From Deltaproteobacteria bacterium UBA2409 (GTDB lineage Bacteria; Bdellovibrionota_C; UBA2361; DDRT01): a stretch of DNA of 64,000 nucleotides. This document shows positions 5,284-49,756 of the stretch, in pieces; the first letter of the stretch is position 1; each line of letters opens with the position of its first letter. Both the position numbers and the translations under genes were made by a program. Below the pieces are notes generated by a model that worked only from the letters and a program-made list of their open reading frames with translations, made no database searches and had not been told where the DNA came from. The stretch covers positions 400,215 to 464,214 of the forward strand of contig DDRT01000001.1 in NCBI GenBank assembly GCA_002343185.1. Direction: 5' to 3'.

Positions 5284-6200
5284 GGTTGTTTCTAAGTATA
5301 GTAAGCTGGAACAGCGAGACACACTTAAAAGTTCTCCTTCCAAAGCTTATCTCTGCTTCAAGCGGATTAGCCAAGATATTTCTATTTGATAATGCATCTA
5401 CAGATGACTCAGTAAAGATTGCAAAAGAGCTTGGAGTAGAAGTGTTCGCTTCATCAGTAAATATAGGGTTCACTGGGGGGCAGAATGAGGGGGTTAGAAG
5501 ATTTTTAGAAGATACAAGCTATGAGATTTTTTGCACAGTGAATCCCGATATTGATCTTGATAGGGAAACCCTAGTGAGATTGGCCACAATACCACACGAC
5601 GTTGTAACTCCGAAAATACTTAGACTTGATAATAATTTTGAGCGAACAAATATTATTGATGCAGCAGGAATGATCTTAAACAGTTCACTTAGGCACCTTG
5701 ATAGAGGTAGTAATGAGGTTGATCGTGGTCAGTATGATAAAGAAGAGATTGTATTTGGTGGAACAGGAGCGTTTTTTGTTTTAAAAAGGCAGGCAATCCA
5801 AAAGCTTTTGCTCGGAGTAGATAACAAAATACAACTCTTCGATGAAGCTTTTTTTGCCTACAGAGAAGATGCAGATCTTTGTTGGAGAATGAGAAGAAGA
5901 GAGATAAAAGTTCACTACACCCCTTCAGTAATAGTTTATCACCAAAGAAAAGTTCTACCAGAAAATAGAAAAGAGGTGTCAACTGATATTAATAGCATGA
6001 GTGTAAGAAACAGATTTTTACTTCAGGTAAATAATTGGATATTTCAAGACGGAGGATTTCTTCAGGGGATTATTTTTAGAAATCTACTAGTAATCATAGG
6101 AGTAATTTTATTCGAACGAAGCTCGATTAAAGGAATAAAAGAGTTCATAGGCCTACTTCCAAGGGCTTTAAAAATAAGAAAAGAGAATCTTCATGGCTAA
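5280..6200 (+). CDS. Glycosyltransferase family 2 protein.
   Basis: GT2 N-terminal signature: SIVSWNSETHL…FDNASTDDS… and a DxD-like region (NPDIDLDRE). The start overlaps the pckG stop by 4 nt. Confidence 0.6.
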   Translation: MRLFLSIVSWNSETHLKVLLPKLISASSGLAKIFLFDNASTDDSVKIAKELGVEVFASSVNIGFTGGQNEGVRRFLEDTSYEIFCTVNPDIDLDRETLVRLATIPHDVVTPKILRLDNNFERTNIIDAAGMILNSSLRHLDRGSNEVDRGQYDKEEIVFGGTGAFFVLKRQAIQKLLLGVDNKIQLFDEAFFAYREDADLCWRMRRREIKVHYTPSVIVYHQRKVLPENRKEVSTDINSMSVRNRFLLQVNNWIFQDGGFLQGIIFRNLLVIIGVILFERSSIKGIKEFIGLLPRALKIRKENLHG

Positions 6201-6933
6201 TGTAGTAATTACTGGTGCTTCGTCTGGTATTGGAGAGTTTCTAGCAAGAGAATTTAGTCGCCGTGGAGATAAAGTTCTTCTTATTGCACGTAGAGAGGAA
6301 AAGCTAAGAAAGATTTCTAAAGAAATCAACGGTGAATATAGGGTTGTCGATCTTTCAAGTGAAGAAGAAACAAAAAAATTAGCAGATTATCTAAAGACAA
6401 GACGAGTAGACATCTTAGTGAATAATGCAGGTCGTGGTTCTTTTGGTTTTTATGAAGATCAAAATGATGACCTGCTAATGATTAAGTTAAACACGATTGC
6501 ACCTACAATCTTATCTCAGGCTGTAATTCCTCAGATGAAAGAAAGAAGAAGTGGAAAAATTGTTTTTATCTCTTCAGTCTGCGCCTTTGTTCCTCTTCCG
6601 TTTATGACTACCTATGCAGCAACAAAAGCTTTCAATCTCTTTCAGGGAAGAGCGCTTAAATGTGAATTAAATCAATTTGGAGTTGGTGTTGTAACTGTGT
6701 GCCCAGGACCAGTTAATACAGAGTTTGGTGGAGTTGCAAGAGTTCCTGGCTCCATGACCGGACTTCCCCGTGACGGAGTTGAGAGTGTTGCAAAAGAAAT
6801 CTTAGAAAAAATTGATCAGGAGATTATTCTTCCCGGAGTTTGGGGTAAGTTTTTAGGAACACTAACTAGACTATCTCCGAATCTTATTTCAAGTAGAGTT
6901 GCTTACAGGTTTTTAAGGCCATTGGTTGGATAA
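6193..6933 (+). CDS. Short-chain dehydrogenase/reductase (SDR).
   Basis: TGASSGIG Rossmann motif near the N-terminus, NNAG motif, and the catalytic Y-x3-K (YAATKAF). Confidence 0.8.
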   Translation: MANVVITGASSGIGEFLAREFSRRGDKVLLIARREEKLRKISKEINGEYRVVDLSSEEETKKLADYLKTRRVDILVNNAGRGSFGFYEDQNDDLLMIKLNTIAPTILSQAVIPQMKERRSGKIVFISSVCAFVPLPFMTTYAATKAFNLFQGRALKCELNQFGVGVVTVCPGPVNTEFGGVARVPGSMTGLPRDGVESVAKEILEKIDQEIILPGVWGKFLGTLTRLSPNLISSRVAYRFLRPLVG

Positions 6934-6950
6934 AAAGAAGTCTAGTACTA

Positions 6951-7063
6951 GTCTGGTCAGTCTTTCTTGTCCCCCGTAGCTTCAGCGGTGGGGGAAGACT
7001 GACCTTAGCCTTAAGGACTGGCTAAAGCCAGTCCAGACATAGATTAAAACCTGACCAGGCAGG
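6951..7063. repeat. Family-2 palindromic intergenic element (MITE/REP-like) with terminal inverted repeats GTCTGGTCAG … CTGACCAGGC.
   Basis: It contains the hairpins GGTCAGTCTT…AAGACTGACC and GGACTGGCTAAAGCCAGTCC plus the shared core CTTCAGCG. Related copies are at 51648-51739 and 35773-35858. It lies between convergent genes. Confidence 0.6.
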
Positions 7064-11850: not shown

Positions 11851-11882
11851 GTCTGGTCAGGCCTTCCGGCCTGACCCCCAAG
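11851..11882. repeat. Family-1 GC-rich palindromic unit (REP-like): GTCTGGTCAGGCC-TTCC-GGCCTGACCCCCAAG.
   Basis: Perfect hairpin GGTCAGGCC/GGCCTGACC. Same family as 25918, 30104, 35711, 41830 and 49657. It sits after the sbcC stop between convergent genes. Confidence 0.7.
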
Positions 11883-17314: not shown

Positions 17315-17662
17315 ATGGCGGATATGACTATTTTCTCTAAGATTATAGCTAAAGAGATACCTGCTGATATTCTTTACGAGGACGAAGAGGTGCTTGCCTT
17401 TAAAGATATTAACCCTAAAGCACCTATCCATGTACTTATAATTCCAAAAAAACCTCTTAAAGATATAGGTGAGGCAACAGCTGAAGATGCGGCAGTTTTA
17501 GGTAGATGTATGTTAGTAGCTGGTAAGCTTGCTAAGAACTTAGGGGTTGCTGAGAGTGGATATAGACTAGTAACAAATAAGGGAGAAGCTGCTGGCCAGA
17601 CAGTTTTTCATCTACACTTTCACCTACTTGGGGGAAGGGATTTTTCATGGCCACCTGGTTGA
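17315..17662 (+). CDS. HIT-family (histidine triad) nucleotide hydrolase.
   Basis: Histidine triad HLHFHLLGG near the C-terminus. Length is 115 aa. Confidence 0.8.
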   Translation: MADMTIFSKIIAKEIPADILYEDEEVLAFKDINPKAPIHVLIIPKKPLKDIGEATAEDAAVLGRCMLVAGKLAKNLGVAESGYRLVTNKGEAAGQTVFHLHFHLLGGRDFSWPPG

Positions 17663-17677
17663 AGGTAGTATTGAAAT

Positions 17678-18448
17678 ATGGAAGATACAGTTAGATATAA
17701 AAGAGATGATATCTCAGTAATTACAATCTATAGAGCAGAGCAGCTTAATGCTTTAAATGCAGATGTTCTAAAAGGGTTACTTGAAGCATTCGATAAAGTT
17801 GAAGATGGGTCAAAAGTAATAATTCTAAAAGGAGACGGTGAAAAGGCATTTGTAGCAGGAGCTGATATAACCTCAATGTCATCTTTAGGTGAAGGTGCAA
17901 TTAGGGACTACATAGAGCTCGGTCAGAAAGTAATGAGAAGGATTGAGACAGCTTCAGTTCCAGTGATTGCTCAAGTCCAAGGTTTTGCCTTAGGTGGAGG
18001 ATTAGAGTTAGCACTTGCTTGTGATCTAATTGTTGCTTCTGAAAAAGCTAAAGTAGGGCAACCTGAAGTAAATTTAGGAATAATTCCAGGATTTGGTGGA
18101 ACTGCAAGATTAATTCAAAGAGCAGGTGTAGGGGTAGCAAGAAGACTAATCTATACTGGAGATCTTATTACTGCTTCTGAAGCCCATAATTATGGAGTCG
18201 TAGATATTGTTACCCCTCATGAGGAGCTTGAAAGTACTGTCGCAGCGTTAGCAAAACGCATCTCAGAAAAAGGGCCATTAGCAGTTAAAAAAGCAAAAGC
18301 TGTTATCAGATCGATCTTTGAGCCGACACTTCATAATGGATTAAGATCTGAGGTTGAAGGATTTGTAGATCTTTTTGATTCAAAAGACAGAGAAGAAGGG
18401 ATGAGAGCTTTCTTACAAAAACGAGCACCTGTTTTTGAGGGTAAATAA
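17678..18448 (+). CDS. Enoyl-CoA hydratase/isomerase (crotonase family).
   Basis: Crotonase-fold motifs: AFVAGADI and the oxyanion region ALGGGLELALACDL. Length is 256 aa. Confidence 0.85.
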   Translation: MEDTVRYKRDDISVITIYRAEQLNALNADVLKGLLEAFDKVEDGSKVIILKGDGEKAFVAGADITSMSSLGEGAIRDYIELGQKVMRRIETASVPVIAQVQGFALGGGLELALACDLIVASEKAKVGQPEVNLGIIPGFGGTARLIQRAGVGVARRLIYTGDLITASEAHNYGVVDIVTPHEELESTVAALAKRISEKGPLAVKKAKAVIRSIFEPTLHNGLRSEVEGFVDLFDSKDREEGMRAFLQKRAPVFEGK

Positions 18449-18451
18449 TTC

Positions 18452-19612
18452 ATGAGCTGGGAGGATGGAATAAGTTTTGGCCTTTCTGAGGAAGTCATCG
18501 CTGTTAGAGAAACGGCTAGAAAGTTTGCCCTAGATGAAGTCCTACCACTTGCCGGGAAAATAGATCAGGAGCACTGGTTTCCTAGTGAGATAGTAAAAAA
18601 ACTTGGTAATTTAGGTTTCATGGGTGCCTGTATACCCAGTAAGTATAATGGTTCCGAGCTTTCGCAGGTAGCATATTGCTTAATAATTGAGGAGCTTGCA
18701 GCAGCTTGCGCATCTACTTCTATTATTGTGAGTGCACATCACTCACTTTGTAGCATCCCAATTTTAGATTATGGAACTGAAGATCAAAAAGAGCGATTTC
18801 TGAAACCGCTAGCATCTGGGGAGAAATTAGGGTGTTTTGCTCTTTCTGAACCAGGCTCAGGAAGTGATGCCGCCAGTATGACCTGTAAGGCAGAAAAGAA
18901 AGGGGATAGATTTATCATAAATGGAACAAAGAATTGGATAACTAATGGACCTCAAGCAAATACAGCTGTTCTCTTTGCAACAATAGATACAACAGCCGGC
19001 CATAAAGGAGTTACTGCCTTTGTTCATGATCTCAATATGCCAGGAATTTCAAGAGGAAAGTCTGAAGATAAGCTTGGTATCAGAGGCTCAGGAACTTGCT
19101 CATTAACGTACGACAACGTTGAGTTAAGAGCAGAGAATGTTTTAGGTGAGGTTGGTCGCGGGTTTAAAGTTGCAATGACCACTCTTAATGGAGGAAGAAC
19201 AGGAGTAGCAGCTCAAGCTGTAGGGATTGCTAGGGCTGCCCTAAGAGATGCCTTACAGTATTCAAAAGAAAGAAAAGCATTTGGAAGGGTTATTAACGAG
19301 TTTCAATCTATACAAAATTATTTGGCAGAGATGGTGAACCAGGTTGATGCAGCAAGATATTTAACAATTAGTGCAGCAGCAAAAAAAGATGCTGGCCTTG
19401 AATATGCTAGAGAAGCTGCACAGGCAAAACTTTTTGCATCCGAAGCAGCGATGTTTTGCGCGAATAAAGGAATTCAGATTCATGGAGGATATGGATACGT
19501 TACTGAGTATCCAGCTGAAAGGCATCTTAGAGATGCAAAGATCACAGAGATTTATGAAGGGACAAGTGAGATTCAAAAGTTTGTAATAGCATCAAATTTG
19601 GTGAAGGAATGA
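18452..19612 (+). CDS. Acyl-CoA dehydrogenase (short/branched-chain type).
   Basis: ACAD motifs [14 protein letters not shown] and a C-terminal [14 protein letters not shown]. Length is 386 aa. Confidence 0.85.
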
Positions 19613-21246
19613 GAAGATATTCTGATTGGTTTCAAAATAGATATAAGGCTCAAAAAGAAAGAAAGTCTAAGTTTGAGTCGATAAGCTTTAGAGAACAGCC
19701 TCCGATCGTGACTAATGAGCACCTAAACGGATTTTCTTATGATGAAAAGCTAGGACTTCCTGGGGAATTTCCTTATACACGTGGGATTCAACCAACCATG
19801 TATCGAGGAAAAATCTGGACAATGCGTCAATTTGCTGGGTTTGGAGGACCAGAAGATACAAATAAAAGATTTAAGTATTTACTTTCACATGGACAAACAG
19901 GACTTTCAACAGCTTTCGATATGCCTTGTCTCATGGGCTATGACCCAGATCATCCGATGAGTAAAGGTGAAGTTGGAAGAGAGGGGGTAAGTGTAGCCTC
20001 AATAGAAGATATGGATAGATTATTTGAGGGGATACCTCTTGATCAGGTTACGACTTCTATGACTATTAACTGCACTGCCACTGTTACACTTGCTTTTTAC
20101 TTTGCTATAGCAAAAAGAAGATCAATATCATTTGATAAAATTGGCGGCACAATTCAAAACGATATGTTTAAGGAGTTTATCGCTCAAAAAGAGTGGATCT
20201 CTCCACCGGCTCCATCAGTGAAACTTGTTTGTGATGTTATAGAATATTGCGCTGAGCTTGCTCCAAAGTTTAACCCTGTAAGTATCTCCGGGTATCACAT
20301 ACGAGAAGCAGGAGCGACAGCAGTTCAAGAGCTTGCATTTACCCTTGCTGATGGACTTGGATATGTTGAGCACTGCATTGGTCGTGGAATGGATGTTGAT
20401 AGTTTTGCACCACAGCTCTCATTCTTTTTTGATGTTCATAATGATTTCTTTGAAGAGATCGCTAAATTTCGAGCTGCAAGAAGGCTTTGGGCTCGAATGA
20501 TGAAAGAGAGATACAATGCCAAAAAACCAAAATCACTCATGCTTAGAACTCATGCACAAACTGCTGGTGTTAGCTTAACAGCCCAGCAACCGGTTAATAA
20601 CGTAGCCAGAGTTACAATGCAGGCTCTTGCAGCTGTTCTTGGAGGAGTTCAAAGTCTTCATACAAACTCCATGGATGAGACTCTATCTCTTCCAACAGAA
20701 GAAGCTGTAAAAGTAGCACTTAGAACTCAGCAGATAATAGCAGAGGAGAGTGGCGTTACTAACACAATAGATCCTCTTGGGGGTTCCTATTACATTGAAA
20801 AGCTTACTGATGAGATTGAAGCAGAAGCTTATTCTTATATCAAAAAAATTGATGAAATGGGTGGTATGCTAAAAGCAGTAGAGCTCGGGTATCCTCAAAA
20901 AGAGATCGCTGAATCATCCTATCAATTTCAGCTAAAAGTTGACTCAAAAGAAGAGGTTATGGTTGGGGTAAATAAGTATCAGGATGAGGAAGAGACACCG
21001 ATTCCGCTTCATGCAATTGATCCTGATGTTGAAAGGCTTCAAATTGAACGGACTAAAGCCCTTAAAGCTTCAAGAAATAAAGAGCTTTGGGAAAAGAGTT
21101 TTAAGGCTATCAAGCAGGCCTGTAAGGAAAATAGAAATGTTATGCCAAGTCTTGTTGATGGCGTAGAGCATGGAGTTACTTTGGGTGAGGTTAGTGACAT
21201 TTACCGAGAAGTTTTCGGTGTTTATCGGGATCCAGGGCTGGTATAG
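19609..21246 (+). CDS. Methylmalonyl-CoA mutase family, catalytic (N-terminal, TIM-barrel) subunit of a split enzyme.
   Basis: MCM-family substrate-barrel motifs: [32 protein letters not shown] and [13 protein letters not shown]. It ends before the B12-binding domain, which is encoded separately at 23830. Confidence 0.85.
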
Positions 21247-21291: not shown

Positions 21292-22398
21292 GTGATTGAT
21301 ACTGAAGAAACCCTATTTCGAATTGGCTTAGACGTAGCAAGGCAGAGGGTATTTACTACCTGGTACGATTCACCGGCTGTATTAATGGAGAATTTTCTAG
21401 CGCTGACCCATTTTTCTAAGTTCGGCGGTATGAATGGAAAAGGCATTCCATTCGATAGAGCCTGTCTTGATTCTGCTCCAAAGTACACAGACTGTAGGGA
21501 AATTTTAGGAGCGATTAATGAAGATCCATTAAACTTTGCATTCACCCCTGAAGAATCAATAAAGGCCATTAGAGATTGGTTTGAAACGATAGGCTCAAGA
21601 ACTGATATGAGCGTATCTGATGTTGCTAGAATTAGGTATGAGGCGAAGGCTATTCTTAATCACATAGATATCGTTGCTGTCTCTGAGGTGGATCTATATA
21701 GACCAGCTGTTAATAGAGTCTATCAGATGTTTAGCTATGAGCTTGATAGGCGATCTGAACCCTTTAAAAGCTTGCTAGAAAATCGTACTACGCCAGCAGA
21801 GTTTTTAGCCTATTTTGAATCATTTCCTAAGAGTCAGGATCCTTGGCAGCTTGATGATTTAGATATAATTGTGAGACATGTTCTAATTCGAGATAGTCAT
21901 TGTCGTACTTCAAATCGATCTAGAGGAAGACATGAGCGTGAATTTTCACAGACTCCTGTTAGAACTATTGTTCAATTTTTAAGGGACAATCCAGAGCTTG
22001 CTCCAAACTCTAATAGCTACTTAATTGATATAGGATCAGGTTGCGGAGTATCAACAGCAGTTTTTTCGCTTCTTACAGGATGTAAAGCCAAGGGGATTGA
22101 GATCGATCCTAGTTTACATAAAGTGGCAACTCGAATCTCAAAGTTTTTACCGATTGAGTTTTTAAATATAGATGCTCTTGACGCAGATTTTCAAGGCGCA
22201 ACGCATGTGTACTTTGCTTCTTCGCTTATATACTCGGCTACTCAGAAGTTGTTTAGACGCATAAGAGAAGCTAATATCGACGATGTTTCGCTACTTGTAT
22301 ACTGGGATATAAACACAGCACTTAGGGCCGATAAATCTTCCTCTAGAGAGATTCATCAGTACTCTTTGAATGATGTAGTCGAGCGGTTAAGAAAGTAG
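21292..22398 (+). CDS. Hypothetical protein with a C-terminal class-I SAM-dependent methyltransferase fold (368 aa).
   Basis: Motif I LIDIGSGCGVSTAVF, then an acidic post-I residue (KGIEID) and a motif-II-like ATHVYFASS. The layout loosely resembles DOT1-type methyltransferases. The N-terminal ~220 aa are unassigned. Confidence 0.45.
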   Translation: MIDTEETLFRIGLDVARQRVFTTWYDSPAVLMENFLALTHFSKFGGMNGKGIPFDRACLDSAPKYTDCREILGAINEDPLNFAFTPEESIKAIRDWFETIGSRTDMSVSDVARIRYEAKAILNHIDIVAVSEVDLYRPAVNRVYQMFSYELDRRSEPFKSLLENRTTPAEFLAYFESFPKSQDPWQLDDLDIIVRHVLIRDSHCRTSNRSRGRHEREFSQTPVRTIVQFLRDNPELAPNSNSYLIDIGSGCGVSTAVFSLLTGCKAKGIEIDPSLHKVATRISKFLPIEFLNIDALDADFQGATHVYFASSLIYSATQKLFRRIREANIDDVSLLVYWDINTALRADKSSSREIHQYSLNDVVERLRK

Positions 22399-22402
22399 CA
22401 GC

Positions 22403-23743
22403 CTAAAACCTAGCTCTAGTTCCTGTATCGGTAGTATTAGTTTTATGAATTGGAATTTGATGAACATGTATCCCTCTTGCCCTTAACTCACGAACCCAAG
22501 GATATTTAGTTAGCTTTTTTGGGAGTGCTGAGTATCTGTAAAATACAACCTGATTACTTGGAAAGTTAATATCTTCAGGAAATCTCACCCCAGAGATAAT
22601 AATTTTTGAGCCCGCTCTTAATTGAGATAACTTTTCTAATCTTGATTCTTTTGTGTCCCTTCCAGTAATCACAACTGGAAAATCATGAAAAATGTCGTTG
22701 GCTAATGAATCTAAAACGGCTTGTATTCTTTTAAGGTCTGTTTTTACATTTTTTGAGTAAACAATATGGATAGCATCAGGTCTTGAAATTTGATTCTCAA
22801 TTATAAGCCTTTTTAGAGTTAATTCTTTGGGGCTAAAATCACCTAAGATTTCATTGGTTTTTTGATGAGCCTCGTAGCTTATTACATTTTTAAGACCTTC
22901 ATCGCTTTTATGTTCTTCTAACCAGTTATTATCAAATGAAAAGAAATAATCTAGCTCTGGAAGAAGTGATTTTGCGGTTCGAATACAGAATGATCTTTGA
23001 TCGAAATATAAGGCCTTTCTAAAATCTCTTGGATCTAAGAGAGCTTCTAGTTTGTTATCAATGATGTATTTTATGAAGCCTCTTACATCCTCTTTCCCAA
23101 GAAACTCTTGAAGTTTATGAGATTCCATAACAAAGCTAGTTCTTTCACGAAGAGTTTTTAGTGACTTATCATCATGAGAGTCGATAATTTCCAGGGCTTT
23201 ATGTAGGCAATTTGCAAATGTAAATCCTAGTGCAGAGACACTTCTTTTGAATCTTGCTTCTCTTACATGCTCAGGAAGTTTGGCTTCAAAATCCCATGTC
23301 TCAATAGCACTATTTCCAGTTTGATAGAGCCATCTTGCCCAAGCATGTATAAGCCTTGTTGGATCAAAATCGGGTAATTTATTGTCTCGCTTGGCCCTGA
23401 GATACTCAATCAACTGATCTCTAAGATCATCGCTTGGCTCTAATTCAAATTTTTTTGGGACTACACTTCTTTTATCAATTCTGGTTAAGGCTTCTAAATC
23501 GCTCCACTTCCCTGGAATAATAGCCTTTATAACTGCCTCAAGTTCTCTAGGCTTTTGCTTTAAATGATCCTTTAGCCTCTCTATAACTTCATCCAAGATA
23601 GTCTCGGGCGAATCTTTAGGGAAAAGTGGCCTAAGAGCGCCGATCGCTCCCTTAGTGAGTTCTGTTCTCTCGTAAACAAACGGCTCGCCACGAACAAGTG
23701 ATACCCCATGGGTTGCTTTTCCTGTGACAACAGCAGTTTCCAT
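22403..23743 (-). CDS. Hypothetical protein (446 aa), convergent with the methyltransferase-fold gene.
   Basis: Long clean ORF ending 4 nt from the stop of the previous gene. No P-loop or other recognisable motif. Confidence 0.45.
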   Translation of the reverse strand: METAVVTGKATHGVSLVRGEPFVYERTELTKGAIGALRPLFPKDSPETILDEVIERLKDHLKQKPRELEAVIKAIIPGKWSDLEALTRIDKRSVVPKKFELEPSDDLRDQLIEYLRAKRDNKLPDFDPTRLIHAWARWLYQTGNSAIETWDFEAKLPEHVREARFKRSVSALGFTFANCLHKALEIIDSHDDKSLKTLRERTSFVMESHKLQEFLGKEDVRGFIKYIIDNKLEALLDPRDFRKALYFDQRSFCIRTAKSLLPELDYFFSFDNNWLEEHKSDEGLKNVISYEAHQKTNEILGDFSPKELTLKRLIIENQISRPDAIHIVYSKNVKTDLKRIQAVLDSLANDIFHDFPVVITGRDTKESRLEKLSQLRAGSKIIISGVRFPEDINFPSNQVVFYRYSALPKKLTKYPWVRELRARGIHVHQIPIHKTNTTDTGTRARF

Positions 23744-23829: not shown

Positions 23830-24231
23830 ATGGAGCGCCCCCTTCGTATAATGATAGCTAAGCCTGGCCTTGATGGGCATGATAGGGGCGCAAAGGTTAT
23901 TGCTAGAGCGCTAAGAGATGCAGGAATGGAGGTTATCTATACAGGGCTCCATCAAACAGCAGATACGATCGTTCAAAGCGCAATTCAGGAAGATGTGGAT
24001 GCTATAGGTGTTAGTATTCTCTCTGGGGCTCATATGACCCAGTTTCCTGAGATTTTAAGCAGACTAAAAGAGCAAGGTGCTGAAGATATTCCAGTTTTTG
24101 GTGGCGGAATAATACCTAAAGAAGATATTGATAAGTTAAAATCCCTTGGTGTTAAAGAGATATTTATCCCAGGCACCTCCACTCAGGCAGTGATTGATTG
24201 GATTAAGTCCAACGTGCGTGCTAATCCTTAA
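23830..24231 (+). CDS. Methylmalonyl-CoA mutase family, B12-binding (C-terminal domain) subunit, 133 aa.
   Basis: Canonical cobalamin-binding DxHxxG motif ([11 protein letters not shown]) and a Rossmann-like B12 domain (GVSILSGAH…, FGGGIIP). Confidence 0.85.
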
Positions 24232-24258
24232 GAAACAAATTAAACTATTAGAATTCTA

Positions 24259-25917
24259 GTGGATAACTTAATAAAATTATCGGCACCAGCCGAGTATCAT
24301 CTATCTGTGTATGGTCCCGATGGTAGAATCTTTCGGAATCCATATCCTGCAGATGATTGTATATTAGAGAAAGACCACCAATATTATGCTGAGGCACGTA
24401 GAGCCGCATCATTTTATAAAGCTGCTCAGAGTAAGGCCATTGAAGGAATCAAGAAGATTCGAGGAACAATTTTTGGGGCAATTCCAAGTAGTGCAACAAT
24501 CGATAAAGTTGAGTCAAAAGAGTTTTTAGAAAACGTTATTAAAGAGGCAATTGAAAAAAATAAGGACAGGATCATAAATCTATTATCAGGAATAGACGAG
24601 ATTCAAGCGGATGATCTTACTTCCTTTGCAGCGCGAGTACTTCAGCTTGCCTTTTATGATATTAATCCTCAGCGAAAATTAAGGGTAAGAGTTGGGCGAG
24701 AACTAAGAGAGGAGCTCTTAGCGCACAGAGAAAATTATAAAGACAACGTTGGAGGGCTCAGCACTTTTTTAGGAGCGTTCCTGTCAAGGCTAGGTTTTAG
24801 AGCTAGGTGCTTTATATCGACTTCTTCTCACCATGATCTAAAGCAGGTATTTGAATCGATGCCTGGAGTTGAATTTGTTCAATCAGGAAGGGTAGTTGAT
24901 CCAAAAAATGTAACTCTTGACCGAGATGAACCAGGAAATATCGTCTGTAAAACAGAGTCGATAAATTTCTTAAATTTTTTCAGTGTGGAGGATCTAAGAC
25001 AGATCCCAGAACCTTTAAATGGCTCAACGCTTTCTGTCGATATAGTTGTTTCTAGAGATGAAGGAATTCCGAGTATTGATGATTGCTCGCGCGAGTTCTT
25101 AGAGGAGCTCTCGAAAGATATACCAGTCTATTTTCTTTCATCAGTCAACAAAGCTAGAACAGCAGAGGAGTTAAATAATTTTTTTGATAATATTAATGGG
25201 ATTCACTCAAGATTTTCCTGGGCATTTTCTTCTTTTATTCATTGGGATACTTTTGGAGCAGGTGTTCCACGGTTTAGAGAGAGGATCACCACTTTCTCTC
25301 TTAATACCGCTGAACTTCTAGATATAGTTAGAAAATTTGATACATGGTTCCCCTCTCTTCCTTGCTCAGTATCTAACAAATCTGAGATCAAAGAGCTTTT
25401 TACACCTCTCTGCGAAGGTGAGCCACATATTCAAAGCTCCGAGTGGATGGTTAATGGTGTCAGAGCCTTAGAGGCTTTATTCGGAAAAGAGGTAAATATC
25501 GTCCTTAGGGGTCACCATATTCATATTGCTAGTTATGCTAGCGCAGACAGATTTACAGAAGAAGAATGTGAACATTTAAGAGATATAAATATGTTCTCAC
25601 GAGCACTTGCTGCTCAGAAGGTTTTCTTTAAAGATGGACTTCCAAAATCTATCGATGAAGTTGGAATAATTGACTTTCCACTTACAGATGATGCGATTCA
25701 TTCATTTACAAGAGCAGCCAGACTCTTTGGTTATGAGGGGGAATTAAGGGAGAAATATTGGGTTAAAACAGATGAAGCTAGGCTAATAGTTTTAATTCCA
25801 ACCATGCCTTTTCTTGTAAGAAGTGGAACTGCTGGAGCAGGGGATAGTATGGACCTAGGTAGAGTTCTAGCAACTCAAGCTCTCCTCGGCGATAGGGTGG
25901 ATGTTAGGTTGATCTAG
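24259..25917 (+). CDS. Hypothetical protein (552 aa) with ribokinase-superfamily-like motifs. Possible sugar/nucleoside kinase related to ADP-dependent kinases.
   Basis: A GG-containing N-proximal motif (DNVGGLSTFLGAFLSRLG) and a C-terminal anion-hole-like GTAGAGDSMDLGRVLA, reminiscent of the GAGD motif of the PfkB/ADP-dependent kinase fold. It has a GTG start 28 nt after the B12 subunit stop. This call is tentative. Confidence 0.3.
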   Translation: MDNLIKLSAPAEYHLSVYGPDGRIFRNPYPADDCILEKDHQYYAEARRAASFYKAAQSKAIEGIKKIRGTIFGAIPSSATIDKVESKEFLENVIKEAIEKNKDRIINLLSGIDEIQADDLTSFAARVLQLAFYDINPQRKLRVRVGRELREELLAHRENYKDNVGGLSTFLGAFLSRLGFRARCFISTSSHHDLKQVFESMPGVEFVQSGRVVDPKNVTLDRDEPGNIVCKTESINFLNFFSVEDLRQIPEPLNGSTLSVDIVVSRDEGIPSIDDCSREFLEELSKDIPVYFLSSVNKARTAEELNNFFDNINGIHSRFSWAFSSFIHWDTFGAGVPRFRERITTFSLNTAELLDIVRKFDTWFPSLPCSVSNKSEIKELFTPLCEGEPHIQSSEWMVNGVRALEALFGKEVNIVLRGHHIHIASYASADRFTEEECEHLRDINMFSRALAAQKVFFKDGLPKSIDEVGIIDFPLTDDAIHSFTRAARLFGYEGELREKYWVKTDEARLIVLIPTMPFLVRSGTAGAGDSMDLGRVLATQALLGDRVDVRLI

Positions 25918-25983
25918 TGGGGGTCAGGCCGGGAGGCCTGACCAGGCAACTGCTAGCTTAGGCCTCCCGGCCTGACCCCCAAG
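25918..25983. repeat. Family-1 palindromic element, inverted dimer: GGGGGTCAGGCCGGGAGGCCTGACCAGG … AGGCCTCCCGGCCTGACCCCCAAG.
   Basis: Two hairpin units in inverted orientation form a roughly 65-bp super-palindrome immediately after the 552-aa ORF stop. Confidence 0.75.
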
Positions 25984-26036: not shown

Positions 26037-26327
26037 GTGGAAAATTTTAATCCATTTAGTATTTTTCTGATCTGGCTTTTTGCAGGTGCAATCGTAGCTT
26101 TAGGCTTAAAGGAGCTACACACTATGCATGGTCAAAGAGCAGGGGTAAGTCAGGTTGAAGTAGACAGCCTTGTTAATAAACTTAAAGGCAATCAAAAGGT
26201 AATAAGACCTCAGTCTGGTGAGAGAGCTTCGTATGTTCCAGAAGAAAAAGTTCAAGAAACAGCCGACGGAGTTAGCAGCAAGGCTAAAGATATTATAAAT
26301 AAGATATTTCCAGGGCAGAAGCAGTGA
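26037..26327 (+). CDS. Small membrane-anchored hypothetical protein (96 aa).
   Basis: N-terminal TM helix (FSIFLIWLFAGAIVALGL). Followed by two lipoprotein genes with overlapping ends. Confidence 0.35.
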   Translation: MENFNPFSIFLIWLFAGAIVALGLKELHTMHGQRAGVSQVEVDSLVNKLKGNQKVIRPQSGERASYVPEEKVQETADGVSSKAKDIINKIFPGQKQ

Positions 26328-26764
26328 GAATTTTAGTCTTAGGGTTAGTAATACTATCAGGGTGTATCCTTGCCCCAGTAATGAAAGGTGTTCAAGACGC
26401 TGGGATCACTAAAAACGACAGAGCAGTAAAATTAGGTGAAAATCTCCGTGAATTTAAAGAAGCCCTTTACTGGGGGCAAACGCTAAGACTAAACAGCTAT
26501 CTACTTGAAGAAGGAAAGGAGTCCTTTACTACTGCCTATAAAGGAGTTGGTCGAACAGAAAGGCTTACCGAAACCAAAGTCGAAGAAACCGAAATTTCAG
26601 AGGATGGTTACTCAGCTAAGGTGCGAATGATGGTTAGATATTATAGGATCCCTCACTATACTGTAGTAGAACGAGTTGATACTCATGATTGGAAATATGA
26701 AGATGGTTGGAAAATCGCCTCAGTTGCAGTTGGTGACGAAGGTAACACTTCTCCTCTTCGTTAG
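26324..26764 (+). CDS. Lipoprotein (146 aa).
   Basis: Lipobox LVILSGC following a short basic N-terminus. The start overlaps the previous stop by 4 nt. Confidence 0.45.
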   Translation: MRILVLGLVILSGCILAPVMKGVQDAGITKNDRAVKLGENLREFKEALYWGQTLRLNSYLLEEGKESFTTAYKGVGRTERLTETKVEETEISEDGYSAKVRMMVRYYRIPHYTVVERVDTHDWKYEDGWKIASVAVGDEGNTSPLR

Positions 26765-27410
26765 TTTTTTAGGCTGCTCCGTAAAGACTGAGCAGAGTGA
26801 GGATGCTCCTGTTTCGTTAAGTGTACTTGAGGAGTTTAGAAATCAAGACACGCTTTCTATAAGAGCCTCTCTTGATTCAAAAGTAGATCCAGCACCTCAG
26901 GTTGCAGTGACACTAAAAACTCTTAACAAGGCAGAGATCGTTGGGGAGTCTCTTTATCCAATCAAGCAGCAAAGTTATCCATATGAGTTTACAATCTCGG
27001 CCTCAGCAAAAGATATGACTGATTATCAGCTTGGTCTTTTTTGGGGGGATGAGGCTGATGAATTTTTTCTTCGAGATGAGACTGTAAAAGAAGAGGAGAA
27101 AAAGGTTGAAGCACCAGAATTAAAGGTTGAAGTGGTGTCAACTAGTCCAAGCCCACTTCAATGTAGGGCTGGAAGCTGCGAAGGAGGGATAGAGATTAGT
27201 GGTCTTCTTAAAGGAGTTGGAAGTAATATAACTCTTTCAGTAGTTCTTATGGACGCAGATGGGGAGGAGGCTACTGAACCTGCAGAGGTAGATTTAGGAG
27301 AGCTTATAGTCGATGGAGAGGCTCCATTTGAACTAGGGATAGATCTTCCGTCTGGCGTTTCAGGCCATGATTTAACCGCAAAAGTTACAGTAGTTGATTT
27401 TACCCCTTAG
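26697..27410 (+). CDS. Acidic lipoprotein (about 235 aa).
   Basis: Lipobox VSFLGCS. The remainder is strongly acidic (many D/E). The true start is uncertain: the track start at 26676 overlaps the upstream gene by 88 nt, and several in-frame starts exist. Confidence 0.4.
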   Translation: MKMVGKSPQLQLVTKVTLLLFVSFLGCSVKTEQSEDAPVSLSVLEEFRNQDTLSIRASLDSKVDPAPQVAVTLKTLNKAEIVGESLYPIKQQSYPYEFTISASAKDMTDYQLGLFWGDEADEFFLRDETVKEEEKKVEAPELKVEVVSTSPSPLQCRAGSCEGGIEISGLLKGVGSNITLSVVLMDADGEEATEPAEVDLGELIVDGEAPFELGIDLPSGVSGHDLTAKVTVVDFTP

Positions 27411-30103: not shown

Positions 30104-30153
30104 CTTGGGGGTCAGGCCGGAAGGCCTGACCAGGCAAGGACTAGACTGGTCAG
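30104..30153. repeat. Family-1 palindromic element (one full unit plus a degenerate inverted partner).
   Basis: CTTGGGGGTCAGGCCGGAAGGCCTGACCAGG … CTGGTCAGGCTCCCCAAG. It lies between convergent genes. Confidence 0.7.
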
Positions 30154-41829: not shown

Positions 41830-41934
41830 CGGGGGTCAGGCCGCCCTATTGTTGCTTCATCCGCTGGCGCGGATGATAGAACCCTGACCAGGCAAGCATT
41901 ACGTCTGGTCAGGCCTTCCGGCCTGACCCCCAAG
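41830..41934. repeat. Family-1 palindromic element, dimer with an extra internal hairpin (CATCCGCTGGCGCGGATG).
   Basis: GGGGGTCAGGCC…CCTGACCAGG … CTGGTCAGGCCTTCCGGCCTGACCCCCAAG. It overlaps the last ~9 codons of the convergent 376-aa ORF. Confidence 0.7.
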
Positions 41935-46720: not shown

Positions 46721-47302
46721 TCAATTCAACTGAAACTCAACTGGAATCAAAAGTGAGATCTGTTCTTGTTTAAATCCCTCAGGAAAATTTGGAAATGGTG
46801 CAGCTCTTTCTGCCATAAGTATAACTTCTGAATCAAGAACATCGTAACCAGAAGATTTTGAAAGCTCTGATTTTAAAAGACTCCCTGTATCTCCAATCGT
46901 GATTGATAGAATTGCGGTACCAGTAATCCCTCTTTTTTGTGCTGATCTTGGATAACGTTTTTTAGACTCAATACTTGAAAGAACTATCTGTTCGTAACTT
47001 GCAGAACCTAATTTAGATTCTTCCGATCTTACTTGAGGAGCTTCTACGGAAGCTGTTCTGGTACCAAAAGTATTTTCAGAAACTGGTTTAGAGGCTGTTA
47101 TCTTTTTAGAATTTATTTTAGTTGATTTGATTTTAGGTTTTTCCGTTGGAAGATCTTTTATAGGGATAGAAGGGGGTACCTTTTCCTCAAAGACAAGAGC
47201 AACATCTATTAGTTTCGTATGGGAAGTCTTTGCGGTGTCTAAATTGAAAATTATGGCTGCGTGAACGATAGTTGAGATAATAATTGACGCAAACCACTTC
47301 AT
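46721..47302 (-). CDS. TonB C-terminal-domain protein.
   Basis: N-terminal TM anchor, Pro/Lys-rich spacer, and a C-terminal TonB domain (…KRYPRSAQKRGITGTAILSITI…). Divergent from the TonB-dependent receptor gene. Confidence 0.6.
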   Translation of the reverse strand: MKWFASIIISTIVHAAIIFNLDTAKTSHTKLIDVALVFEEKVPPSIPIKDLPTEKPKIKSTKINSKKITASKPVSENTFGTRTASVEAPQVRSEESKLGSASYEQIVLSSIESKKRYPRSAQKRGITGTAILSITIGDTGSLLKSELSKSSGYDVLDSEVILMAERAAPFPNFPEGFKQEQISLLIPVEFQLN

Positions 47303-47470: not shown

Positions 47471-49657
47471 ATGTATAGAGTATTAGTAATTTTAATTATT
47501 TTAGCCTCTTCATTGATTGCAGAGGAGAAGAAAGACGAAAAGAAGTCAACAAATAGAATTTTGGTCTTATCTGATAAGGATCTTCTAAAAGTTGCTGGAG
47601 GTTCTGCAACACTGCTTGATGAGGAAGATCTTAAAGAAACAAAAGGAAGTGGTGATGATGTTCATCAGACACTAAAAAAAGTTCCTGGTGTTAACATCCT
47701 TGAAGAAGAAGGATATGGGCTAAGACCAAACATTAGTTTTAGAGGAACTCCACCTGAAAGAAGCAGAACAGTAACAATTATGGAAGATGGAGTTTTAAAG
47801 TCACCAGCTCCTTATACAGCACCATCAGCATACATTTTTCCAACATTTGGCCGAATGGAAGGACTTGAAATTCTAAAAGGGGCCTCTCAAATTAAGTATG
47901 GCCCTCAAACAATTGGCGGAAGTTTGAATATGCTCTCTGCAAAGATCCCTGAGGATCAGAGAATTTTTGCTCGCATTGAAGGTGGCGAAGATAGCTTCTT
48001 AAATGCTCATGCAAAATTTGGACAAGGATATGAAAACGGAGGATTCCTGCTTCAAGCATACGACACTCAAACTGATGGATTTAAAAAATTAGATAGCGGC
48101 GGTGACACAGGATTTGATCTAACTGACTTAATGGGTAAGTTTCAGATTAATACAGATAAGGCTGCTGATGTTTATCAGGAGCTTGAGTTTAAAGTTAACG
48201 ATATGACTCAAGATTCAGATGAGACATATCTTGGTCTTACAGAGAATGATTTTAGAGATGATCCATATAGACGTTATTCAGCAACTCAAAACGATAAGCT
48301 AGATATAAGTCAAGAATCATATCAATTAAGGCACTATATCCAGCCAAATGAATTAGTTGATCTAACAACTGTACTTTACAGAACAAAGTCTGCTCGTAAC
48401 TGGTACAAGTTAGATAAGGTTGGTGGAATAGGGCTCTCTGATATTATGAAGGATCCTTTAACTTATGCAGATCCATATTCTTGGATAACAGGAATGACTA
48501 GTCCTGATGATTCACTAGTAATTCGTGGAAATAACAGAAGATACGACTCAAAAGGCATACAATCTGTTCTTGGTGTTGAATTTGATACCGGATCAGTCGG
48601 CCATACAGTTGAGTTTGGTGCTAGGTATCACGAAGACGAAGAAGATCGTTTTCAAGCTGAGGACTCCTATAGAATGGAAAATGGCACTATGATCAGAACA
48701 AAACTTGGTGCTCCTGGTTCGCAGGAAAATCGTATTGGTGATGCACAGGCATGGGCATTCTTTCTTCAAGATACTCTTAAGCTAGATAAACTAACCCTGA
48801 CCCCTGGAGTTCGTTATGAACTTATCGACTACAGAAACCGTGATTTTGGAAAGCTTGATCCAACAAGAAGTGGATCAGCACTTACGACTTCAGAATCAGA
48901 AGTTGACGTAGTAGTGCCTGGGCTTGGCGCAACTTATGTTTTGACTGATTCTGTTTTACTTGTTGGTGGTGTTCATAAAGGGTTTGCCCCTCCAGGACCA
49001 CAGGCAACAAGTGATATTAAAGAGGAGGAAAGTGTAAATTATGAGGCAGGCCTTCGTTATGATAATCAGAGCTTATCTGGATCTTTAATCGGGTTTTTGA
49101 ACGATTATGACAATCTCTTAGGTGCTGATACTCTTGCTGCTGGTGGAACAGGTTCTGGAAATCTGTTTAACGCAGGTGAAGCAAGAAGCTACGGTGTTGA
49201 GACAGGCATTGGATACGATATTGGTAAATCTGCTAAACTTTCAGTAGGGCTGCCAGTATATGTTAGCTATACCTACACAAATGCTGAATTTAGAGATTCC
49301 TTTAATAGCTCACTTTTTGGCTCAGTTACTTCAGGAGATAAGCTGCCCTATATAGCTGAGAATCTTGTTTCAGTAGGAGTTGGGGTTGATTATCAGAAGT
49401 TCAAAGTTAGACTTGATGGACATTTCACTGATGAGATGCCTGTTATAGCTGGTCAAAGTGGACTTAGAACTGATGAGAAAACTGATGACAATTGGGTGTT
49501 TGACTTAGGTGCTTCATACGAAGTAGCTGAAGGAACAAGAGTTTTCTCAAAAGTAAGAAATCTCTTCGATGAAGAGTATGTTGCAGCTCGTCGACCTGCT
49601 GGAGCAAGACCAGGGCTTCCAACAACTGTGTTTGCAGGGATTGAGATAGACCTGTAG
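47471..49657 (+). CDS. TonB-dependent outer-membrane receptor.
   Basis: Signal peptide, plug domain (…VPGVNILEEEGYGLRPNISFRG…), and a long β-barrel region rich in alternating aromatic/Gly residues. Length 728 aa. Confidence 0.7.
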   Translation: MYRVLVILIILASSLIAEEKKDEKKSTNRILVLSDKDLLKVAGGSATLLDEEDLKETKGSGDDVHQTLKKVPGVNILEEEGYGLRPNISFRGTPPERSRTVTIMEDGVLKSPAPYTAPSAYIFPTFGRMEGLEILKGASQIKYGPQTIGGSLNMLSAKIPEDQRIFARIEGGEDSFLNAHAKFGQGYENGGFLLQAYDTQTDGFKKLDSGGDTGFDLTDLMGKFQINTDKAADVYQELEFKVNDMTQDSDETYLGLTENDFRDDPYRRYSATQNDKLDISQESYQLRHYIQPNELVDLTTVLYRTKSARNWYKLDKVGGIGLSDIMKDPLTYADPYSWITGMTSPDDSLVIRGNNRRYDSKGIQSVLGVEFDTGSVGHTVEFGARYHEDEEDRFQAEDSYRMENGTMIRTKLGAPGSQENRIGDAQAWAFFLQDTLKLDKLTLTPGVRYELIDYRNRDFGKLDPTRSGSALTTSESEVDVVVPGLGATYVLTDSVLLVGGVHKGFAPPGPQATSDIKEEESVNYEAGLRYDNQSLSGSLIGFLNDYDNLLGADTLAAGGTGSGNLFNAGEARSYGVETGIGYDIGKSAKLSVGLPVYVSYTYTNAEFRDSFNSSLFGSVTSGDKLPYIAENLVSVGVGVDYQKFKVRLDGHFTDEMPVIAGQSGLRTDEKTDDNWVFDLGASYEVAEGTRVFSKVRNLFDEEYVAARRPAGARPGLPTTVFAGIEIDL

Positions 49658-49756
49658 GTAAGCTGACTTGGGGGTCAGGCCGGGAGGCCTGACCAGACGT
49701 AGTGCTTGACTGGTCAGGCCTCCCGGCCTGACCCCCAAGTAGCCTGACCCCCAAAG
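49657..49756. repeat. Family-1 palindromic element, perfect inverted dimer plus an extra half-site.
   Basis: CTTGGGGGTCAGGCCGGGAGGCCTGACCAG-acgtagtgcttga-CTGGTCAGGCCTCCCGGCCTGACCCCCAAG-tag-CCTGACCCCCAAAG. It lies between convergent genes. Confidence 0.8.

Follow-up and report, generated by a model that had tools for sequence, protein, structure and literature searches.

The locus

This work concerns a stretch of 64,000 nt from Deltaproteobacteria bacterium UBA2409 (contig DDRT01000001.1), hereafter "the window", and in particular a 552-aa gene that directly follows the gene for the B12-binding small subunit of an acyl-CoA mutase. The reading we favour, and consider likely as a whole, is that the 552-aa protein is a catalytically competent small-molecule kinase with the fold of the ADP-dependent kinases, and that its place beside the B12-binding subunit reflects local rearrangement, not coupling. 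An original prediction, made from the sequence, had described the two open reading frames (ORFs) and their spacing, and both are as it gave them:

23830..24231, + strand: ORF of 133 aa with an ATG start, encoding the B12-binding small subunit
24232..24258: spacer of 27 nt between the two ORFs, the second start lying 28 nt past the last base of the first stop codon
24259..25917, + strand: ORF of 552 aa with a GTG start, encoding the kinase-like protein

Judged by its sequence, the 133-aa protein is the adenosylcobalamin (AdoCbl)-binding small subunit of a split acyl-CoA mutase. It matches PF02310 (E=1.6e-26) and TIGR00640 (acid_CoA_mut_C; 164.7 bits against a cut-off of 57.45) and carries the DxHxxG motif (D15-G-H17-D-R-G20). 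It is 93-98% identical within the window's clade and 67-70% identical to the small subunits at mutase loci L015, L028 and L006, which come from Bdellovibrionota-like genomes where the small subunit is encoded beside or near the large one.

The 552-aa frame is a real gene under strong purifying selection. Four orthologues of the protein (61-84% amino-acid identity) share an identical GTG start, and the ratio of non-synonymous to synonymous substitution rates (dN/dS) is 0.075-0.15 in every pair with an unsaturated, computable dS, which rules out a spurious ORF. Co-transcription with the small-subunit gene is plausible because the gap is 27 nt and a terminator scan of it (24232..24258, + strand) found no terminator-like hairpin.

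Homology and fold

Single-sequence searches with curated models say little about the 552-aa protein. It has no match in Pfam, even at E values up to 10, so the hidden Markov model (HMM) check against PF00294 and PF04587 that the original prediction proposed is negative for the window protein. The NCBIfam ADP-glucokinase model scores it far below threshold (12.4 bits against a cut-off of 554). Across the 12 family members that we assembled (described below), PF00294 (PfkB) matches none, again at E up to 10, and PF04587 matches one, P0005, below its cut-off (E=0.022; 13.9 bits against 27).

Searches of the PDB sequences reach further. With phmmer, the sole match of the window protein is the ADP-glucokinase of P. 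furiosus (1ua4, E=0.0019), which aligns in two collinear stretches, one at each terminus. A profile of ten family sequences finds 6c8z, an ancestral ADP-dependent phosphofructokinase (ADP-PFK), at E=8.3e-7, and the profile of all 12 (alignment A4) finds it at E=5.4e-8 over almost its full length (profile positions 117-586, chain residues 60-503). The next six matches of that profile (1u2x, 5od2, 3drw, 5o0j, 5o0i and 1l2l; E 1.6e-4 to 2.2e-3) are all chains of ADP-PFK or of ADP-dependent glucokinase (ADP-GK).

Structure prediction recovers the same fold. AlphaFold2 (AF2), run on the 12-row alignment, gave a model with a predicted local distance difference test (pLDDT) score of 84.8 and a predicted template-modelling (pTM) score of 0.84; this run superseded one on four close orthologues, which was unusable (pLDDT 50). 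When the model is compared with the PDB by Foldseek, ADP-dependent kinases take the first 22 places (E 6e-21 to 8e-11; target-normalised TM score 0.60-0.77), and PfkB kinases rank only after those 22, at E values of 1e-5 or weaker. The protein has a three-layer alpha/beta/alpha large domain and a lid (small) domain, and the small domain is of the enlarged alpha/beta type that characterises the ADP-dependent kinases, with which the family also shares profile-level homology.

The 552-aa protein thus belongs to the ribokinase superfamily, in its ADP-dependent sugar-kinase branch, and is homologous to ADP-PFK and ADP-GK. This upholds the ribokinase-superfamily fold that had been proposed for it, and the profile, AF2 and Foldseek results sharpen the assignment to the ADP-dependent branch. 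An N-terminal extension of about 100 residues had also been proposed, but this was an overstatement: residue 52 of the window protein aligns with residue 7 of the P. furiosus ADP-glucokinase, so the extension is about 45 residues. Its residues 1-37 are the sole low-confidence (disordered) part of the AF2 model.

Active site

Residue equivalences were taken from phmmer and HMM alignments (to 1ua4, 6c8z and 1u2x), and invariance was scored over the 12 family sequences. Residue roles come from the paper on the structure of AncMsPFK with fructose-6-phosphate (F6P) and ADP-beta-S (PMC7948494). The active-site features are, in order along the gene:

24490..24504, + strand: S78-A-T-I-D82, counterpart of the N-x-N-x-D sugar-binding strand (phmmer alignment to 1ua4)
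24676..24708, + strand: basic cluster K140-L-R-V-R-V-G-R-E-L-R150, just before the GG motif (family alignments A2 and A4)
24745..24780, + strand: NVGGLSTFLGAF, residues 163-174, the GG motif (HMM alignment to 6c8z and 1u2x)
25216..25224, + strand: S320-W-A322, at the HXE position (HMM alignments to 6c8z and 1u2x)
25303..25314, + strand: N349-T-A-E352, the NXXE motif (Mg2+/phosphate site), aligned with D310-x-x-E313 of 6c8z
25825..25860, + strand: GTAGAGDSMDLG, residues 523-534, containing the GXGD motif G526-A-G528-D529, aligned with TVGIGD

The core catalytic residues are present throughout the family. GTAGAGDSMDLG aligns with the TVGIGD of 6c8z, 1ua4, 1u2x and 5od2; all 12 members have G528 and D529, and at least 90% have T524 (the T of TVGIGD). 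AncMsPFK uses D471 as its catalytic base (PMC7948494), and D529 is the predicted equivalent. N349 and E352 of the NXXE motif are likewise invariant (12/12). G165 and G166 correspond to G114 and G115 of AncMsPFK (MGGQ), the first invariant and the second present in at least 90% of members. The two motifs that the original prediction had picked out by eye are therefore there, and by alignment they are the GG (MGGQ) and GXGD motifs of the ADP-dependent kinases.

The substrate-binding end of the site has kept one landmark and changed others. AncMsPFK binds sugar with N32, N34 and D36, of which D36 binds the sugar ring, and its full set of contacts to glucose or F6P is N32, N34, Q116, K179 and N181 (PMC7948494). 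D82, the counterpart of D36 and of the D of NTNID in 1ua4, is invariant in the 12 sequences, and three of the sugar contacts are replaced (N32 by S78, N34 by T80 and Q116 by L167). The His and Glu of HXE are lost in every family member, with A, F, V, L or C at the Glu position; S324, at the position of T284, is conserved in the family.

The family also has conserved basic residues of its own. Within the basic cluster, R142 and R150 are invariant and K140 and R144 occur in at least 90% of members; in the alignment to 6c8z, ADP-PFK and ADP-GK have no counterpart of this K140-R150 cluster. Further along the protein, R417 and R448 are invariant, and R441 and R508 occur in at least 90% of members.

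Proposed activity

The 552-aa protein is probably an active, soluble small-molecule kinase. Sequences less than 20% identical all retain the GXGD Asp and both residues of NXXE, as would be expected of an active enzyme. By motif conservation, the mechanism would be the standard one of the ribokinase superfamily: a hydroxyl-bearing, sugar-like acceptor would bind between the lid and the large domain, held by D82; D529 would take a proton from the acceptor hydroxyl; and N349 and E352 would place the Mg-nucleotide for in-line phosphoryl transfer.

A protein of this fold could instead have given up catalysis and serve as a ligand sensor, a regulator or a pseudo-kinase. The loss of HXE would suit such a role, as would the position of two distant relatives, P0006 and P0011, whose genes are divergent from a hybrid histidine kinase/response-regulator gene. 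The same invariance of the GXGD Asp and NXXE residues at less than 20% identity argues the other way, and we regard a non-catalytic protein as very unlikely.

The enzyme might also be a bona fide ADP-dependent glucokinase or phosphofructokinase of the glycolytic type that has merely diverged in sequence. ADP-PFK and ADP-GK are, after all, its best profile and structural matches, and one distant member, P0012, lies near ROK and phosphomannose-isomerase genes. However, identity to these enzymes is just 14-17%, the PF04587 and NCBIfam ADP-glucokinase scores are far below threshold, HXE is missing in all members, the counterparts of the AncMsPFK sugar contacts N32, N34 and Q116 have changed, and there are extra conserved basic residues which ADP-GK and ADP-PFK do not have. 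We therefore consider a glycolytic role unlikely. Because the sugar contacts are replaced, HXE is absent and the family-specific Arg and Lys residues are conserved, the acceptor of the kinase that we favour is probably neither glucose nor F6P and may be anionic.

A small family within a known fold

The family is very small and had not been modelled before, with about 12 clusters among billions of proteins. The first protein search found four clusters among 5.8 billion proteins, and an exhaustive hmmsearch of 1.84 billion representatives gave seven matches. Word-indexed searches with family alignments returned just four and three proteins, the second of them adding two to the family. Genome contigs scanned with alignment A1, and metagenome contigs scanned with A4 and A1, contained no further family member. 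In A4, identity to the window protein is 17-20% for members outside its clade. The sole member with an organism name is a "hypothetical protein [Oligoflexia bacterium]" (MBX7138074.1) from a metagenome-assembled genome (MAG). The window's own mutase points to Bdellovibrionota. No paper naming both ADP-dependent glucokinase and Bdellovibrio turned up in a literature search.

Most known ADP-dependent sugar kinases come from archaea and eukaryotes. This group (ADP-GK, ADP-PFK and bifunctional enzymes; PF04587) includes 6c8z/6xio, 1l2l, 5od2, 1ua4 and mouse ADPGK (5ck7), and the 552-aa protein shares with it, in identical order, the N-terminal substrate-binding Asp, the GG motif, N/DXXE and T-x-G-x-G-D. 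It differs in length (552 aa versus about 455 aa, through the roughly 45 extra N-terminal residues and internal insertions) and in source, since the 552-aa family is bacterial, with Oligoflexia the sole named origin. Because the protein scores below the curated thresholds, and because HXE and the known sugar contacts are absent, we file the family as a divergent sister family within the known fold and not as ADP-GK or ADP-PFK.

Two other comparisons are useful. With the PfkB/ribokinase group (PF00294; e.g., adenosine kinase, ribokinase and KDG kinase), the protein shares the superfamily core and the catalytic logic (GXGD Asp as base, NXXE, GG hinge, and an N-terminal Asp that binds substrate hydroxyls), but it is 552 aa long where those enzymes have about 300-350 aa, and it has no PF00294 match. 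With the accessory proteins of mutases (the MeaB/MMAA G-protein chaperone and ATP:cob(I)alamin adenosyltransferase), it has in common only its position beside a mutase subunit. Its fold is unrelated to theirs, its structural matches are ribokinase-superfamily kinases only, and Pfam and NCBIfam find no MeaB/ArgK-type GTPase or Cob_adeno_trans domain in it.

Surroundings of the mutase genes

The two mutase genes are split in the window by two lineage-specific orphans, which together with the large subunit lie as follows:

19609..21246: mutase large subunit
21292..22398, + strand: orphan of 368 aa between the mutase genes
22403..23743, - strand: orphan of 446 aa between the mutase genes

The 368-aa ORF has weak matches only, at its C-terminus, to PDB sequences of S-adenosylmethionine (SAM)-methyltransferase-like proteins, and the 446-aa ORF has no match anywhere, a PDB sequence search included. 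At L099 (7864-9434) the 368-aa gene persists only as frame-broken fragments and the 446-aa gene is gone, and at L015 and L028 the large- and small-subunit genes are directly adjacent. Because orphans split the mutase genes and are decayed or gone in L099, this stretch of chromosome evidently gains and loses foreign genes. L006 (an uncultured Bdellovibrionales) has a PMT-family glycosyltransferase between its mutase genes, which is again unrelated cargo. This 555-aa ORF (5326-6993) was considered as a counterpart of the kinase and rejected, the glycosyltransferase being unrelated.

Where P. shermanii methylmalonyl-CoA mutase (MCM) has Tyr89 and Arg207, the large subunit carries Phe (MRQFAGF) and Gln (EFIAQ), a pair common to all 80 of its closest homologues. 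We take this pair to be a signature of the isobutyryl-CoA mutase (ICM) type and not of the MCM type; we found no citable published signature that separates ICM from MCM. The large-subunit gene, with 17315-19612 upstream of it, follows genes for a HIT protein, an enoyl-CoA hydratase and an acyl-CoA dehydrogenase, a context which fits butyryl/isobutyryl-CoA metabolism.

Is the kinase coupled to the mutase?

The original prediction raised the possibility that the kinase serves the cobalamin or mutase pathway, with unrelated cargo as its fallback. Within the window's clade the arrangement is constant: the order of small subunit then kinase, with a spacing of 14-27 nt, occurs at six loci (L001-L005 and L099). 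The adjacency is seen only where kinase identity is at least 61%, i.e., in one narrow clade, and the kinase diverges far faster there than the small subunit (61-84% versus 93-98% identity).

Outside the clade the pairing disappears. None of the eight distant family members with readable contigs has a B12-binding or mutase neighbour. The genes for P0011 and P0006 each diverge from one that encodes a hybrid histidine kinase/response regulator of 417 aa (L086 8444-9697 and L088 93-1346), which is the sole context that recurs outside the window's clade; because these two proteins are 52% identical, the shared context may reflect related lineages. P0012 has genes for ROK, phosphomannose isomerase and BON proteins nearby, P0008 lies downstream of a GT61 glycosyltransferase, and P0005, P0007 and P0010 are among orphan genes or genes of unrelated function. 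P0009 is on a contig of 2.3 kb, where almost no context is visible.

The same holds when the search starts from the mutase. We took the surroundings of the closest large-subunit homologues in GTDB genomes (80 loci, 1.29 Mb), and tblastn and the family HMM found no family member within 10 kb at any of the 80. The proposed check for conservation downstream of mutase B12 subunits in other taxa is thus negative. The other Bdellovibrionota-like genomes nearest to the window's each have a different gene behind the small subunit, be it a C92 peptidase on the opposite strand, a patatin or an unknown gene.

An Rfam scan of the whole window found no cobalamin riboswitch and no other RNA family, and there is no other cobamide gene near the kinase. 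We scanned window ORFs of 120 aa or more at 1-17 kb, those of 150 aa or more at 33-64 kb and all large non-nested ones at 17-33 kb; none has a MeaB/ArgK-type G-protein chaperone domain or a cobalamin adenosyltransferase domain.

Cobamide salvage employs enzymes of the ribokinase superfamily, e.g., the alpha-ribazole kinase CblS. If the kinase were tied to the mutase, its substrate could be the mutase itself, a metabolite of the pathway, or a precursor or salvage intermediate of cobamides such as a lower-ligand riboside, and this would account for co-expression with a B12-binding subunit. The adjacency is tight (14-27 nt) in six of six clade loci, the usual accessory genes are not local (with no MeaB or adenosyltransferase match among the scanned ORFs), and a riboside acceptor is chemically conceivable because the counterpart of D82 binds the sugar ring in AncMsPFK (PMC7948494). 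However, synteny conserved across so narrow a clade weighs little, and neither the distant members (0/8) nor the mutase loci (0/80) support the pairing. Nor is there a cobalamin riboswitch in the window or a cobamide gene nearby, and the intergenic zone has taken in clearly unrelated genes both in the window's genome and in related ones. We consider this explanation improbable.

The proposed coupling to a cobalamin or mutase pathway is therefore not borne out, given one clade, 0/8 distant relatives and 0/80 mutase loci, and unrelated cargo is the better reading. The adjacency looks like a local rearrangement in one clade, i.e., a lineage-specific accident of gene order, and a true functional link between the kinase and cobalamin or the mutase is quite unlikely.

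Some points weigh against an active ADP-kinase-fold enzyme that is next to the small subunit by accident. The order and tight spacing are kept in the clade down to 61% kinase identity, and because the upstream methyltransferase-like gene decayed in L099 over an equal span, there may be a selective reason for co-expression. The contigs of the distant relatives are mostly short (2-28 kb), and context was read within those stretches. On the enzymatic side, the missing HXE motif (H280-x-E282 in AncMsPFK) is critical for Mg-ADP binding in ADP-dependent kinases, its Glu coordinating Mg-ADP through water (PMC7948494). R206 of AncMsPFK, the conserved Arg that contacts the ADP phosphates (PMC7948494), is tentatively aligned with S259, a variable column in a gapped region of the HMM alignment. 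The structural model was built on an alignment of just 12 sequences.

Downstream boundary and other features

A 64-nt element directly follows the kinase stop codon, and copies of its core occur elsewhere in the window:

25918..25981, no strand assigned: GC-rich palindromic element of 64 nt, resembling repetitive extragenic palindromes (REPs) and miniature inverted-repeat transposable elements (MITEs)
11859-11876, 25918-25981, 30110-30127, 41911-41928 and 49673-49733: sites of the element in the window

The palindrome consists of a 16-nt loop on a 24-bp stem, with perfect pairing throughout the outer 22 bp; as RNA it folds at -65.9 kcal/mol (z=-7.9). The core is GGTCAGGCCGG(G/A)AGGCCT, flanked by TTGGGGG and CCCCCAA, and there are seven core copies in the window against 0.01 expected. 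The elements lie at gene 3' ends, either as one copy alone or as two in an inverted pair, and every site except the one at the kinase (four of five) is between convergent genes. The kinase-side element is absent at the matching place in L002 and L005, where the next gene, for a 95/96-aa membrane protein, starts 42-45 nt after the kinase. The element at 25918..25981 is a REP/MITE-like insertion, and in the window's genome it probably ends or stabilises the small-subunit/kinase transcript.

Three small genes (96, 146 and up to 244 aa; window 26037-27410) follow the kinase in all clade members, and none has a Pfam match. The first encodes one hydrophobic helix, and the second and third have lipoprotein-like signal sequences (LSGC and FLGC). 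As listed, the second and third ORFs share about 90 nt, so the true start of the third is probably internal. The window also contains a TonB-dependent receptor gene (47471..49657) and a TonB gene (46721..47302), and it has no tRNAs.

Implications

As a rule, cobalamin-dependent mutases do not have this kinase as a partner, and its neighbourhood alone should therefore earn it no B12-related annotation. We see a slim chance that it represents a new specificity class, recruited into the operon of the B12 subunit because its product or substrate (e.g., a cobamide lower-ligand riboside or a CoA-pathway intermediate) feeds the mutase; if so, it would add a so far unrecognised accessory enzyme to those of AdoCbl-dependent acyl-CoA mutases.

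If our preferred reading of a catalytically competent ADP-kinase-fold enzyme is true, a bacterial sister family that lacks HXE and the known sugar contacts would broaden the functional range of this fold. For annotators, the family offers a way into a group of "hypothetical proteins", and the 552-aa protein is a clean target for a screen of acceptors and donors.

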